64,000 bases of DNA from Candidatus Calidihabitans tengchongensis (GTDB taxonomy: Bacteria > Sysuimicrobiota > Sysuimicrobiia > Sysuimicrobiales > Kaftiobacteriaceae), in the NCBI GenBank assembly GCA_031459615.1, contig JAVKIE010000004.1:76955-140954 (forward strand). The letters are read 5' to 3'. The notes under the pieces are model-generated. The model was not told where the DNA came from and ran no database searches. It saw only the letters and a list, made by a program, of their open reading frames with translations. A program made the translations under genes and the position numbers. Shown in pieces: positions 41,344 to 46,030 of the stretch (position 1 is the first letter of the stretch; each line of letters begins with the position of its first letter).

Positions 41344-41859
41344 ATGAGGCCGACAGCCATTCGCGACCGCGCGCAGACCGGAATCGGGTTTCTTCTGACC
41401 CGCCGCACGGCCGTGCGGGTGGGCGTGCCGCTGCTGGCGGCGGCGGCCACCAGCCTGATCCTGGCCCTGTCGGCGCGTCCCACGCACCCGCGCCCCGGAG
41501 ACCACTGGCGGGCCCGCTACCTGATCGTGATCTGCGGCCGGCCGGTAGCGGACCTGCCGCGCACCTCGGGGCCGGTCTACACCGACGGCGACGGGGTGAT
41601 CCACGTGGCGCCCCGCACTGCCGCAGAGGGAGGGTCCCGCGCGACCCTGGGCCGCTTTTTCGCCTCGGCCGGCATGCGGTTCTCCCGGGACGAGATCGTC
41701 TTTCCTGACGGGACAGCCTACCGGTCCGGAGACCGCTGCCCCGATGGTGCGGTGGGGCAGGTCCGCCTGCTGGTCAACGGCCGGCCGTCGCGCGAGTTCG
41801 ACAGATACGTGCCTCACGACGGAGATGCGATCGTCATCCAGTTCGGTGCCAGCCGGTAG
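41344..41859 (+). CDS. Secreted hypothetical protein, paralog 1 (unrecognised family, His/Cys motifs)
   Basis: Start MRPTAIRDRAQTGIGFLLTRRTAVRVGVPLLAAAATSLILALSA (signal/TM). Conserved core shared with paralog 2: GDHW.ARY..V.CGR, GDG.IH..P, ATLGRFFASAG.RFSRD, FPDGT.YR.GDRCPDG, RLLVNGR. Confidence 0.55.
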   Translation: MRPTAIRDRAQTGIGFLLTRRTAVRVGVPLLAAAATSLILALSARPTHPRPGDHWRARYLIVICGRPVADLPRTSGPVYTDGDGVIHVAPRTAAEGGSRATLGRFFASAGMRFSRDEIVFPDGTAYRSGDRCPDGAVGQVRLLVNGRPSREFDRYVPHDGDAIVIQFGASR

Positions 41860-41863
41860 GAAG

Positions 41864-42358
41864 GTGCGCCCGCGGAGTCCGAGGCAGCGCGGAAGGCGCG
41901 GCCGGTGGCCGGTGCTCCTGGCCGTGGCCGGCGGCCTGTTGACCTTCACCGGCCTGCTGGTGCTGGCGGCCCGTCAGCCGGCACTGCCGCGGGTCGGAGA
42001 CCACTGGCACGCCCGCTATGCGGTAGTGGTCTGCGGGCGGGAGCGACCTCCGTTTCCGCCCACCCCTGGAAACGTCCACACCCACGGAGACGGCCTCATC
42101 CACATCCACCCCGTGCTGCCGGTCGAGGCGGGCCGCAACGCCACCCTGGGCCGATTCTTCGCCAGCGCCGGCGTCCGATTCTCCCGGGACGCCCTGGAGT
42201 TTCCCGACGGCACGGTCTACCGAACCGGCGACCGCTGCCCCGACGGCCGCCCGGGACGGCTGCGCCTGCTGGTGAACGGACGGTCCCGCGACGCGTTTGA
42301 CACATACGTGCCCCAGGATGGGGACACCATCGAGGTGCGGTTCGGTCCGGACGGGTAG
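41864..42358 (+). CDS. Secreted hypothetical protein, paralog 2 (about 60 % identical to paralog 1)
   Basis: GTG start 5 nt after the paralog-1 stop, preceded by GGAAGG. Signal/TM WPVLLAVAGGLLTFTGLLVLAA. Ends 13 nt before copC. Confidence 0.55.
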   Translation: MRPRSPRQRGRRGRWPVLLAVAGGLLTFTGLLVLAARQPALPRVGDHWHARYAVVVCGRERPPFPPTPGNVHTHGDGLIHIHPVLPVEAGRNATLGRFFASAGVRFSRDALEFPDGTVYRTGDRCPDGRPGRLRLLVNGRSRDAFDTYVPQDGDTIEVRFGPDG

Positions 42359-42370
42359 AGGAGGGGGACG

Positions 42371-42742
42371 GTGCTGAAGGTGCGGGTCAGCGCAGCCGCC
42401 GCGGTCGTGCTCGCCCTGGCCGCCTCCGCCGCCGCCCACGCCCGGCTGGTGCGGTCTGAGCCGGCGGCCGGCGCGGTGCTGCGGTCCGCTCCCCGGGAGG
42501 TGCGGGCGTGGTTCAGCGAAGAGCTCGACCCCGGCCGCAGCCGCCTGAGCGTGTGGGACGCCCGCGGGCGGCAGGTGGACGACGGACGGGGCGGCGTGGA
42601 CCTGGACGACCTGGACCGCAGATCCATGGTGGCCCGCCTGCGCCCCGTCGGCCCCGGAACGTACACGGTGCGATGGCGGGCGGTCTCGGCCGACGACGGG
42701 TTTGTGGCCGAAGGGCAGTTCCGGTTCACGGTCAGGCCCTGA
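42371..42742 (+). CDS. copC: Copper resistance protein CopC (periplasmic copper chaperone)
   Basis: Signal peptide, then HARLVRSEPAAGAVL ... YTVRWRAVSADDG, the CopC beta-sandwich signature. 123 aa. Confidence 0.8.
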   Translation: MLKVRVSAAAAVVLALAASAAAHARLVRSEPAAGAVLRSAPREVRAWFSEELDPGRSRLSVWDARGRQVDDGRGGVDLDDLDRRSMVARLRPVGPGTYTVRWRAVSADDGFVAEGQFRFTVRP

Positions 42743-42743
42743 G

Positions 42744-45107
42744 ATGACCCGCGGTCGCCTTCCGCTGGCAGTGACGGGCGCGGCCGCGGCCGTGCTGCTG
42801 GCGGCCGCCGGGGCGTCGGCCCACGCTGTCCTGGTCCGCTCGGCCCCGCCCTCGGGTGCGTCCCTGTCGGCGGCCCCCGCAGCCGTGGTGCTGGAATTCT
42901 CCGAGCCGGTGGCCCCGGGGCTCAGCGCCGCCACGGTGACCGACGGCTCCGGGACAGTGGTTTCCACCGTCGCCAGCCTGTCGGCCGACCGCCGCAGCCT
43001 CACCGTGTCCCTGCGGCCGCTGGGCACAGGTGTGTACACGGTGCGGTGGAGGGTCCTGTCCACCGCCGACGGCCACGCCACGACGGGGTTCTTCCTGTTC
43101 GCCGTGGGCCAGCCTGTGGGCGGGCAGGTGCGAGGCACCGCTGCGGCCGCCCCGCCTGTCTCCCAGGTGGCCGTCCGGTGGTTGAACTTCGCCGCCGCCC
43201 TCTTCCTGGCCGGCGCGGCTGCATTTTACGCGGCCGTCCTGCGGCCGTCCCTGGCGAGCCTGGATCCCGCCTCGGCCGCCCTGGCATGCGATGCCGTCCG
43301 CCCGCTGCGCCGCGCGGAAGCGGCCGCCGCGGGGATGCTGGTGGTCGGCGTGGTGGGAGAGTTCATCCTGCAGGCTTCCGCCCTCCTCGACGCGCCGCCG
43401 GCGGCGGCGTGGCGTGCCGGCCTGCTGGGGGCGATGCTGGGCGGTACCAAGACCGGCTGGAGCGTGCTGGTGCGATTGGCCGGCGCGGCGGTGCTCCTGG
43501 TGCCCCCCACGCCGTCCGGGCGGATCCTCCGAGCGGTCCTGCTGCTGTGGTGCGCCATCGTGGGAGCCATCACCGCACTGTTCGGCGGCCCCGCGTCTCT
43601 GGGCGGCTCGCCTCACCTCCCACTGGTGATCCTGGTGGCGGTCGTCTACGGGCTCCTCGGCGCGACGGCGGCGGTGGTCATTCCGCTGGTGCCTGGAGTG
43701 CGGGTGCCGCCGCTGTGGCCCACCTCGCTCCTGGCTGCCGGGACGATCCTGGCGGGGGTGACCGTCAACTCCCACGCCGCCGCCCTGGGCCTCGCGGCCT
43801 CCGCGGTGGACTGGGCGCACCTGGCGGCTGCCGGCGTGTGGGTGGGAGGACTGCCGTCCCTGTGGCTGGTCCTGCGGCGGGCGCCGCCGTCCGCCCGCAC
43901 CGCGCTGGCCGCCGTCCTGGTGCCGCGCTTTTCCCGGGCGGCGGGAGTCAGCCTGCTCGTGCTGGCGGTCACGGGGATGTACGGCGCCCTGGTCCACGTG
44001 CCGTCGGTCCGCGCGTTGGCGGTCACGCCCTACGGAAGGTTGCTGTCGGTCAAGCTGGTCCTCGTGGCGGCGGCGGCCGGGCTGGGGGCGTACAACCGGT
44101 TCGTCCTGCGTCCCCGCCTGGCCGCGCGGAAGGAGGAGCGCGTCGTCGCCCGCTTCCTGCGCGCCCTCGCCGCCGAAGTCTCCGTGGGCGCGGCCGTCGT
44201 GCTGGTGGTCGCGGCCCTGACCATCACCCCGCCGGCGTCAGTGACCCTGCCGGCGGCCACGCCCCCCCAGCCGCCGCTGGTCCTGGCCGGGATGGCGGGT
44301 CCGTTCCGGGTGGAGCTCACCGTCACGCCCGCGCAGCCGGGCTGGAACCGACTGGAGGTCACAGTGCGTGGCCCCGCCGGGCCTCTGGATCCTGCGTCCT
44401 CCCGGGTTTTGCTGCGGGCGTTGAAGCTGGATGAGGACCTCAGTCCGGTCACCCTCACCCTGCAGCCGCGGGGAGACCGGTTCGCGGCCGAGGGAAGCGA
44501 GGTGGGTCTGGCGGGCCTGTGGGAGCTGCACGTGGTGGTCCGCCGCCGTGGAGCCCCCGACGAGACCGTGGTCTTTCCGCTGCTGCTGGGGTCGGTCACC
44601 CGGAAGTCCTCAGACCCGCAGGCGTTACGGCTGCTGGAGCGGGCGCGCCGGGCGGCCGTCCGGGTGCGCACCTGGCGGGAGCGGGAGCAGATTGCCGACG
44701 GGGCCGGGGGGGTGGCGGTCACGGACCTGGAACTGGTCCGACCCGACCGCCTGCGCTACAGGACCGCCGGCGGCAACGAAGCCGTCATCATCGGCTCGAC
44801 CCGGTACTTCCGGACGGCCGGCGGCCCGTGGGAGAAAGACACCCTCCCCAACCCGCTCAGCCTGGAGGGGCCGTTTGCCGCCTACCTCCAGGAGCCCCAG
44901 GGGGCCGTCCTGGGGCGCCGGGGAACGTGCGCGGACGAGCCGTGCCAGGCAGTGGTCTGGAGGTCACCGGGCGGCACGGCCGTCTTCGGGGCGTGGGTGG
45001 GAGAGAGGACGGCGCGGGTCTACAGGCTGCTGATGCTGGCCCCGGCCCACCACATGACCGCCGAGGCCTCCGACCACGACCTCCCGCTGCGGATCGCGCC
45101 GCCCTAG
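42744..45107 (+). CDS. CopC-CopD fusion copper resistance membrane protein with a large C-terminal extracytoplasmic extension (YcnJ-like)
   Basis: Start MTRGRLPLAVTGAAAAVLL. N-terminal CopC domain (HAVLVRSAPPSGASL ... YTVRWRVLSTADGH). Then about 8 TM helices of CopD. Then about 270 soluble residues. Confidence 0.8.
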   Translation: MTRGRLPLAVTGAAAAVLLAAAGASAHAVLVRSAPPSGASLSAAPAAVVLEFSEPVAPGLSAATVTDGSGTVVSTVASLSADRRSLTVSLRPLGTGVYTVRWRVLSTADGHATTGFFLFAVGQPVGGQVRGTAAAAPPVSQVAVRWLNFAAALFLAGAAAFYAAVLRPSLASLDPASAALACDAVRPLRRAEAAAAGMLVVGVVGEFILQASALLDAPPAAAWRAGLLGAMLGGTKTGWSVLVRLAGAAVLLVPPTPSGRILRAVLLLWCAIVGAITALFGGPASLGGSPHLPLVILVAVVYGLLGATAAVVIPLVPGVRVPPLWPTSLLAAGTILAGVTVNSHAAALGLAASAVDWAHLAAAGVWVGGLPSLWLVLRRAPPSARTALAAVLVPRFSRAAGVSLLVLAVTGMYGALVHVPSVRALAVTPYGRLLSVKLVLVAAAAGLGAYNRFVLRPRLAARKEERVVARFLRALAAEVSVGAAVVLVVAALTITPPASVTLPAATPPQPPLVLAGMAGPFRVELTVTPAQPGWNRLEVTVRGPAGPLDPASSRVLLRALKLDEDLSPVTLTLQPRGDRFAAEGSEVGLAGLWELHVVVRRRGAPDETVVFPLLLGSVTRKSSDPQALRLLERARRAAVRVRTWREREQIADGAGGVAVTDLELVRPDRLRYRTAGGNEAVIIGSTRYFRTAGGPWEKDTLPNPLSLEGPFAAYLQEPQGAVLGRRGTCADEPCQAVVWRSPGGTAVFGAWVGERTARVYRLLMLAPAHHMTAEASDHDLPLRIAPP

Positions 45108-45178
45108 CAGGCCAGGGGAGCCGTCTACGGCCGCGGGGTAGGGGGTACAACACCGGCGGGAGACGGGGGGTGCGGGGG

Positions 45179-45526
45179 ATGCTCTGTCGGGCCTGCGGGA
45201 GGATGAACCGGGACGAGGACCTGTTCTGCAGTTCCTGCGGGGCCAAGCTGCTGCGGTCGAAGGTCTGCCGGGCCTGCGGCGCCAAAAACCGCCACGACAG
45301 CACGTACTGCGGGACCTGCGGGGCCAAGCTGCCCGACGACGGGATGCACTGCCCGTCCTGCGGCCACCCGGTGCGCCCCCGCGACCAGTTCTGCAGCAAC
45401 TGCGGGACCCAGGTGGCGGAGGGCATCGTCTGCAGGCTCTGCCACGCCAGCAACCGCGACGACGCCCGCTTCTGCGCCACCTGCGGGTCGGAGCTGAAGG
45501 TGAGAGCTCCGATGGCGGCGGGCTAG
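45179..45526 (+). CDS. Tandem zinc-ribbon protein (four CxxC...CxxC ribbons)
   Basis: MLCRACGRMNRDEDLFCSSCG / CRACGAKNRHDSTYCGTCG / CPSCGHPVRPRDQFCSNCG / CRLCHASNRDDARFCATCG: four regularly spaced double-CxxC units, non-random. 115 aa. Confidence 0.6.
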   Translation: MLCRACGRMNRDEDLFCSSCGAKLLRSKVCRACGAKNRHDSTYCGTCGAKLPDDGMHCPSCGHPVRPRDQFCSNCGTQVAEGIVCRLCHASNRDDARFCATCGSELKVRAPMAAG

Positions 45527-45951: not shown

Positions 45952-46030
45952 TGGGGTGACCGAGGGGACTTGAACCCCCGACCTCCTGGGCCACAGCCAG
46001 GCGCTCTGACCGGGCTGAGCTACGGTCACC
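45952..46030 (-). tRNA. tRNA-His (anticodon GTG) with encoded G-1 and CCA
   Basis: Reverse complement: G-GTGACCG-TA-GCTC-AGCCCGGTCA-GAGC-G-CCTGG-CTGTGGC-CCAGG-AGGTC-GGGGG-TTCAAGT-CCCCT-CGGTCAC-C-CCA. The extra 5' G is typical of tRNA-His. Confidence 0.8.

Follow-up and report, generated by a model that had tools for sequence, protein, structure and literature searches.

Two membrane-anchored β-grasp proteins encoded ahead of CopC and CopC-CopD genes, candidate partners in extracytoplasmic copper binding

Two paralogous genes at the head of a cop gene cluster

The window analyzed here, a 64,000-nucleotide stretch of contig JAVKIE010000004.1 of the bacterium Candidatus Calidihabitans tengchongensis, carries two adjacent, related genes directly upstream of genes for a CopC protein and for a YcnJ-like CopC-CopD fusion. 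We call them ORF A and ORF B (open reading frames A and B), and we use X for the domain that they have in common with the rest of their family. Coordinates are positions within the window, on the forward strand unless stated otherwise. ORF A (41344..41859, ATG start, 171 amino acids (aa)) and ORF B (41864..42358, GTG start, 164 aa) each encode an N-terminal membrane anchor followed by a domain predicted to have the β-grasp fold. ORF B is a canonical member of the family, with all six of its conserved His residues and a Cys pair, and ORF A keeps two of the six His. An initial annotation of this DNA had described the two as tandem paralogs of about 60 % identity. BLASTP bears this out (E=3e-56), with 52 % identity over 168 aa (full length) and 61 % over the conserved core (residue 44 onward), and the conserved motif blocks that had been quoted are all present in the alignment of the two proteins.

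The cop genes follow closely. A gene for a stand-alone CopC (42371..42742, 123 aa, with a signal peptide; PF04234, 3.9e-21), in which D-G-F replaces the usual D-G-H, precedes the fusion gene (42744..45107, 787 aa), whose CopC domain keeps D-G-H and whose product ends in a conserved extension of ~280 aa. The CopC profile matches both of these genes at about 1e-20, and matches neither ORF A nor ORF B. ORF A and ORF B are separated by 4 nt (GAAG), ORF B and copC by 12 nt, and copC and copC-copD by 1 nt; the first two gaps had been reported as 5 and 13 nt. Such gaps of 1-12 nt suggest that ORF A and ORF B are co-transcribed with the cop genes. The GC content at third codon positions is 0.87 in ORF A and 0.86 in ORF B, next to 0.91 in the neighboring cop genes, and the region around the two ORFs has ~74 % GC overall.

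Both products are predicted to be extracytoplasmic and anchored in the type-II orientation. The putative signal-anchor or transmembrane (TM) helix spans residues 20-43 in ORF A (41401..41472), with 6 Arg/Lys ahead of it, and residues 15-36 in ORF B (41906..41971), with 7 Arg/Lys ahead. Kyte-Doolittle 19-mer maxima of these stretches are 2.0 and 2.4, respectively, and AlphaFold2 models both as helices, which agrees with the N-terminal signal or TM segment that the initial annotation had assigned to each protein.

The start of ORF B can be compared with that of a public protein. ORF B is 99 % identical to QN173_08390 (our P0001, 148 aa), a “hypothetical” protein from an Armatimonadota metagenome-assembled genome (MAG), for which the annotated start lies 16 codons past the GTG at 41864. 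The shorter form (skipping window positions 41864-41911) lacks the Arg-rich segment together with the beginning of the anchor helix. We favor the longer form because of homologs and of a GGAAGG just upstream of the GTG.

Histidine signature, fold and family extent

For the conservation counts, we aligned 337 unique homologs to the family profile and numbered residues as in ORF B. Six His residues are near-invariant: H47 (332/337), H49 (331/337), H72 (331/337), H74 (325/337), H80 (334/337) and H82 (302/337, with Glu in 29 others). They make up three HxH pairs. The first lies in the motif D46-H47-W48-H49-A50 (41999..42013), at the start of strand β1 in the ORF B model, and the other two lie in H72-T-H74-G-D-G-L-I-H80-I-H82-P83 (42077..42112), of which HTH falls in the insert between β1 and β2, and IHIH in β2. 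Comparable conservation is seen for W48 (324/337), P83 (332/337), G122 (329/337), C57 (330/337) and a Cys at position 125 or 126 (326/337). In our reading, the His residues would form one or two metal sites.

The two Cys (Cys57, 42032..42034; Cys125, 42236..42238) vary together. About a dozen sequences carry Y, W or G in place of C57, and in these C125 has changed as well; loss of C125 alone is confined to two sequences. Additionally, one lineage (L151, L157 and L164) has lost both Cys and gained two new ones. Since the Cys covary in an exported domain, C57-C125 suggests a disulfide rather than metal ligation. The initial annotation had offered a metal site or a disulfide for the Cys and His residues together; their near-invariance in homologs stands, and the covariation favors the disulfide for the Cys.

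It had also taken the His clusters to be common to both proteins, which does not hold for ORF A. Four of the six family His are replaced there (H49R, H72Y, H74D and H82A). Thus, the first motif reads D53-H54-W55-R56-A57 in ORF A numbering (41500..41514), with Arg for its second His, and the second reads Y79-T-D81-G-D-G-V-I-H87-V-A89-P90 (41578..41613), with Y, D and A for three of its four His. The resulting pattern at the key positions, H-R-C-Y-D-H-A, was common only to one other protein among the sequences examined (P0025, in locus L092). Therefore, ORF A probably does not bind metal in the way that the canonical domain might. Its role may be that of an adaptor or partner, or its divergence may reflect functional decay.

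AlphaFold2 predicts a TM helix followed by a β-grasp domain for ORF B (mean pLDDT 95.1, pTM 0.81) and for ORF A (pLDDT 88.8 overall, >=96 over the domain). The modeled fold is recognizable as a β-grasp of the transcobalamin-β/3u7z type, a placement with which Foldseek agrees weakly (E about 0.02). This group covers the β-domain of transcobalamin, haptocorrin and intrinsic factor, as well as bacterial DUF4430-type proteins (PDB 3u7z). What sets the transcobalamin-like clade apart among soluble-ligand-binding β-grasp (SLBB) domains is a β-hairpin inserted right behind the helix (PMC1796856). Such a hairpin insert is present in the models, formed by strands 110-112 and 118-120 after helix 95-101 in ORF B, and by strands 117-119 and 125-127 in ORF A. 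Two glycines are a signature of the clade, one directly following strand 2 and one in the turn that leads into strand 3 (PMC1796856). In the family, G90 (320/337) and G122 are near-invariant, and these could be their counterparts. Compared with SLBB and DUF4430-type proteins, the family is distinct in its His/Cys signature and in the insert between β1 and β2. Neither ORF has a Pfam match to SLBB or DUF4430 at E<=0.1.

The sulfur carriers ThiS and MoaD also have a β-grasp fold, and the C-terminal segment of the family (VNG...Y.P.DGD.I) is similar to that of ThiS. We rejected membership in the ThiS/MoaD/Urm1 group of small cytoplasmic proteins, given that the Gly-Gly end is missing (ORF B ends in ...FGPDG and ORF A in ...FGASR) and an N-terminal TM anchor is present. 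C-terminal tails are variable across the family.

Sequence searches with ORF A and ORF B gave no match in Pfam (E<=0.1), NCBIfam or PDB sequences, and the Pfam profiles for CopC, PCuAC (DUF461) and DUF1775 in particular did not match. A profile of 120 family members run against PDB retrieved ThiS alone, at E=0.97. We found no account of the family in the literature searched. Therefore, the earlier remark that the proteins belong to no recognizable family is upheld at the level of sequence, although their fold is recognizable as a β-grasp. As far as these searches show, the accessory family is undescribed, while the system as a whole, a CopC/CopD operon with an extracytoplasmic accessory protein, is of an already known kind.

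The family is large. A word-indexed search returned 119 homologs, all unnamed or hypothetical except for one labeled “ThiS” (JGI) and one labeled “CsgD regulator”; the latter is a fusion protein of the family. An exhaustive profile search found 2,406 representatives (of clusters at 50 % identity) at E<=1e-3, of which 1,525 reach E<=1e-10 and 540 reach E<=1e-30. Some actinobacterial and archaeal hypothetical proteins with the pattern “HxH ... HTHD.G.IH.E ... TLG.FF..WG” may be associated with the family.

Genomic neighborhoods and the candidate copper role

We compared loci from GTDB species representatives (80) and metagenomes (80), found by a search built on a 14-sequence alignment, and loci from exact-protein look-ups (16). 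Collapsing X proteins at 90 % identity gave 131 groups, 116 of them with visible flanks. Neighbors were judged by smaller ORF clusters, seed-based phmmer searches and Pfam checks of representatives; two large clusters of spurious high-GC ORFs, which arose in single-linkage clustering of neighborhood ORFs, were set aside.

A copper module (CopC/CopD, Caa3_CtaG or cupredoxin) is linked to X in 21 of the 116 non-redundant loci. Immediately adjacent, same-strand CopC/CopD genes occur in 11 distinct loci (9 non-redundant groups, L173 and L176), with gaps to X of about -58 to +150 nt. Five gene orders occur: X-CopCD, X-CopC-CopCD, X-X-CopC-CopCD (as in the window), X-CopC-CopD and CopC-CopCD-X. Separate CopC and CopD genes are found in L014 (Methylomirabilales), and the X gene comes last in L176 and L012. 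The MAGs with these arrangements are labeled as Armatimonadota, Methylomirabilales, Nitrospira or unclassified. All CopC/CopD matches sit in the cop cluster that abuts X, with none elsewhere in the flanks. Recurrent same-strand adjacency across taxa is what would be expected of an accessory protein of CopC/CopD systems, and it bears out the co-occurrence that the initial annotation had proposed to check, although roughly 80 % of family loci have no copper gene as a neighbor.

Two further copper links, independent of each other, go beyond CopC/CopD. In 3 Dehalococcoidia-type groups, a Caa3_CtaG gene (PF09678, about 1e-59) lies directly upstream of X. In 9 groups, cupredoxin domains (PF13473, PF00127) are fused C-terminally to X or encoded next to it, and the same holds for at least 7 of the top 150 representatives. 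The terminal cupredoxin often has type-1 copper ligands (H...C-D-F-H-x3-M, C-x2-H-x3-M), and some copies lack the Cys. Pairs consisting of an X-cupredoxin fusion and a stand-alone X recur (L106, L107, L119, L151 and L157; also L118 and L164), indicating that tandem X genes are a habit of the family. In Chloroflexota-type metagenome contigs, the first gene of such a pair encodes an Arg/Glu-rich cytoplasmic N-terminus, a TM helix, X and 2-3 cupredoxin-like domains, and the stand-alone X gene starts ~10-70 nt after it (e.g. L106 1128-3248, L151 5644-7819 and L157 3-1916).

The fusions raise the question of whether X, instead of being a chaperone, houses a redox-active copper or other metal center, e.g. 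a cupric reductase or an oxidase fed by cupredoxins, that prepares Cu(I)/Cu(II) for import by CopD or for oxidase assembly. Two or three cupredoxin-like domains C-terminal to X would fit such an activity, the six His in their three HxH pairs could hold a dinuclear site, and a molybdopterin oxidoreductase gene comes after X in L036. However, several of the fused cupredoxins are without the Cys ligand (e.g. L151 and P0139), no cupredoxin is found next to ORF A or ORF B in the window, and we found no catalytic precedent for the fold in this analysis. A redox enzyme is thus distinctly unlikely.

We propose instead that ORF B is a candidate extracytoplasmic copper-binding partner of CopC/CopD, analogous to YcnI, and give this a probability of about one half. 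ORF B would face outward from the membrane to which it is tethered, bind metal there and cooperate with the CopC proteins and the YcnJ-like CopC-CopD importer. Copper might pass between ORF B and the CopC proteins of the next genes downstream, which might feed or buffer the importer, as YcnI does for YcnJ in Bacillus. Binding of a metal of any kind is suggested by the His signature in a ligand-binding type of β-grasp, and copper specifically by the convergence of three unrelated copper partners (CopC/CopD, Caa3_CtaG and cupredoxins). That the metal is copper is inferred, and so is the direction in which it would be passed on.

YcnI has a cupredoxin-like/Ig-like fold and an N-terminal His-brace. 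It belongs to DUF1775 and is encoded in the ycnKJI operon; as a single-pass anchored extracytoplasmic protein beside a CopC-CopD(-YtkA) importer, it is placed similarly to ORF A and ORF B. The resemblance does not extend to sequence. As the initial annotation had held, ORF A and ORF B are unrelated to YcnI, having no DUF1775 match in Pfam or NCBIfam. Moreover, their anchor is N-terminal and that of YcnI C-terminal, and their conserved His lie in internal HxH pairs of a predicted β-grasp. B. subtilis YcnI is the nearest functional precedent: this anchored protein binds Cu(II), trades it with the CopC domain of YcnJ and promotes growth when copper is limiting (PMC12362106, PMC13344008).

CopC (PF04234) and PCuAC (DUF461) offer a looser parallel: both are small, copper-binding extracytoplasmic proteins whose genes cluster with those for CopD or cytochrome oxidase assembly, and both differ from ORF A and ORF B in fold and ligand set. 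Membership in CopC itself was rejected, as CopC is an Ig-like β-sandwich, the predicted fold here is a β-grasp and no profile match was obtained.

Several observations weigh against ORF B as a copper partner of CopC/CopD. Besides the ~80 % of loci already mentioned, X copies adjoin genes such as DUF59/FeS_assembly_P, ksgA, purC/purS or priA/def. Several of the CopCD-linked loci have a common wider synteny (luciferase-like, Vgb-lyase-like and VWA genes), so that not all of them count as independent. In L092, which is closely related to the window, the only X gene by CopC/CopCD is a His-poor A-type copy, implying that this position can do without the full His set. The six His may make one site, two sites or none. 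Finally, a ZnuB/MntB-type ABC-3 permease gene lies upstream in one linked locus (L014), so that another metal is possible.

Some of these points would be accommodated if X were a generic extracytoplasmic β-grasp that binds another metal (Zn, Ni or Fe) or a small molecule, and its adjacency to CopCD were a lineage-specific accident of synteny. HxH clusters bind Zn and Ni too, and a DtxR-type regulator gene is found near L011, in addition to the permease gene of L014. The fold is also like that of soluble-ligand-binding β-grasp domains (PMC1796856). By contrast, an accident would have to account for three unrelated copper modules, linked to X by adjacency or fusion in different phyla and gene orders, and for the confinement of CopC/CopD matches to clusters that abut X. 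No comparable recurrent link to a Zn or Ni system was seen in the loci. We consequently regard a non-copper ligand as unlikely.

A different context is seen in Acidimicrobiia, where the X gene overlaps an upstream GT2 glycosyltransferase gene by 10-16 nt in about 25 loci, which also counts against a universal copper role. An LCP (LytR_cpsA_psr) gene lies further upstream, and CofD/CofE genes lie downstream on the other strand, an arrangement that is conserved and places X among cell-wall genes. The family could accordingly act in assembling or binding cell-envelope glycopolymers, with the copper-gene link being secondary. N-terminal VanZ fusions to X exist and would fit this, as would the occurrence of SLBB β-grasp domains in polysaccharide export proteins (PMC1796856). 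Yet the GT2/LCP synteny is limited to one class and may be simply inherited, the window's subfamily has no such neighbors, and six invariant His are hard to square with sugar binding. This role seems very unlikely to us. The Acidimicrobiia members themselves (L039-L091, e.g. L047 6993-8705) are 250-280 aa long, with an N-terminus of the form MGKASS.KKVAR and a Pro/Ser-rich tail.

Other architectures combine a GerE/LuxR helix-turn-helix (HTH), a TM segment and X (P0120 with 420 aa, P0178, P0237 and P0086), suggesting that the X domain is also used as an extracytoplasmic sensor. P0120 contains two X domains, with partly degenerate His patterns, and these proteins resemble membrane-bound one-component regulators. 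By analogy, ORF A and ORF B could form a pair for signaling or regulation that detects copper in the periplasm and adjusts the cop genes accordingly, and would not traffic metal. This is highly improbable, in that the two proteins have only ~15-20 cytoplasmic residues and no output domain, and no regulator is adjacent in the window.

Regardless of these alternatives, the grounds on which the initial annotation would have abandoned a copper-handling role, namely a match to a characterized non-metal family or homologs lacking the His/Cys positions and never located with cop genes, were not encountered, because no family match was found, the His and Cys are conserved, and homologs do co-localize with cop genes. 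A more far-reaching proposal, which we offer only tentatively, is that X is a new copper-binding domain, a membrane-anchored, six-His and possibly dinuclear β-grasp, that is widespread and serves outside the cytoplasm as copper donor, acceptor or reductase for CopC-CopD importers, CtaG-type factors of oxidase assembly and cupredoxins. If so, its range would take in Chloroflexota, Acidimicrobiia, Armatimonadota/CSP1-3-like bacteria and Methylomirabilota, and the His-complete ORF B and His-depleted ORF A would act as a pair in the window. To our knowledge, copper acquisition in these four groups is essentially unstudied, and it is poorly understood how bacteria bind extracytoplasmic copper and pass it to importers of the CopD/YcnJ type; the accessory proteins described so far, namely CopC, YcnI, PCuAC and YebY, stem from a few model organisms. 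Should the family bind copper, it would extend bacterial copper trafficking by a new fold and a new arrangement of ligands, and thousands of “hypothetical” proteins in poorly studied phyla would gain an annotation. The hypothesis for ORF B is open to direct test, with a soluble domain of ~120 residues and candidate partner CopC proteins encoded next door.

History of the two copies and other observations

The two paralogs do not stem from a recent tandem duplication, a scenario that we rejected because ORF B is nearer to homologs in other genomes (69-70 % identity to L013, P0003 and P0005, vs. 61 % to ORF A over the core), and ORF A groups with syntenic copies elsewhere. In a tree of the core domain, ORF A falls with the L092 protein (87 % identity) and with P0023 (69 %), which is an intermediate carrying H74Q and H82E. 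The loci of these two relatives (L092 and, for P0023, L173-L175) have one A-lineage X gene each and no B copy. They also have the synteny of the window: glyoxalase-like, luciferase-like, LysE or Vgb-lyase-like, opposite-strand VWA, X, CopC and CopC-CopD. In the window, the VWA-domain gene lies upstream of ORF A on the opposite strand, with the LysE gene and luciferase-like gene beyond it. Given the single A-lineage gene in these loci, ORF A appears to be the resident, decaying copy. From these comparisons, ORF A is the older, syntenic and now degenerate copy in this lineage, and ORF B an additional canonical copy inserted between ORF A and copC.

Stand-alone CopC proteins encoded beside X genes have a variant motif, which is D-G-F in the window (42371-42742), L092 (6458-6826) and L173 (5570-5989), and D-L-D in L176 (1645-2406). 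The CopC domain of the adjacent fusion retains D-G-H. The variant stand-alone CopC also has a “DDGRGGVDLDDL” insert. It seems to represent a subclass in which the canonical Cu(II) site is missing its second His, and is found in the same clade as the His-depleted X copies.

The C-terminal region of the window's CopC-CopD fusion (44270-45107, residues ~510-787) matches that of its relatives at E-values down to 1e-136. These ~280 aa have no Pfam match in the window copy, and the homolog in L005 has a weak YtkA match alone.

In several Armatimonadota/CSP1-3-like genomes, X has a DUF59/FeS_assembly_P gene (PF01883) on one side and, on the other, an unannotated gene of ~135-138 aa without a Pfam match (L001 5578-7102, L025 2642-3482 and the P0065 locus). 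Another X neighbor is a convergent gene that, judged by eye, may encode a nicotinate phosphoribosyltransferase.

The long ORFs antisense to ORF A and ORF B are not backed by homologs and are of a type usual in high-GC DNA. Scans of the upstream intergenic region for consensus promoters, terminators and inverted repeats were empty, a result that is uninformative at 74 % GC.

Downstream of the cop operon, positions 45155-45526 encode a 123-aa protein with four tandem double-zinc-ribbon repeats (DZR, 9.4e-32). It is followed by a tRNA-His (GTG) gene on the reverse strand (45952-46029), where the local GC content falls to 0.68.

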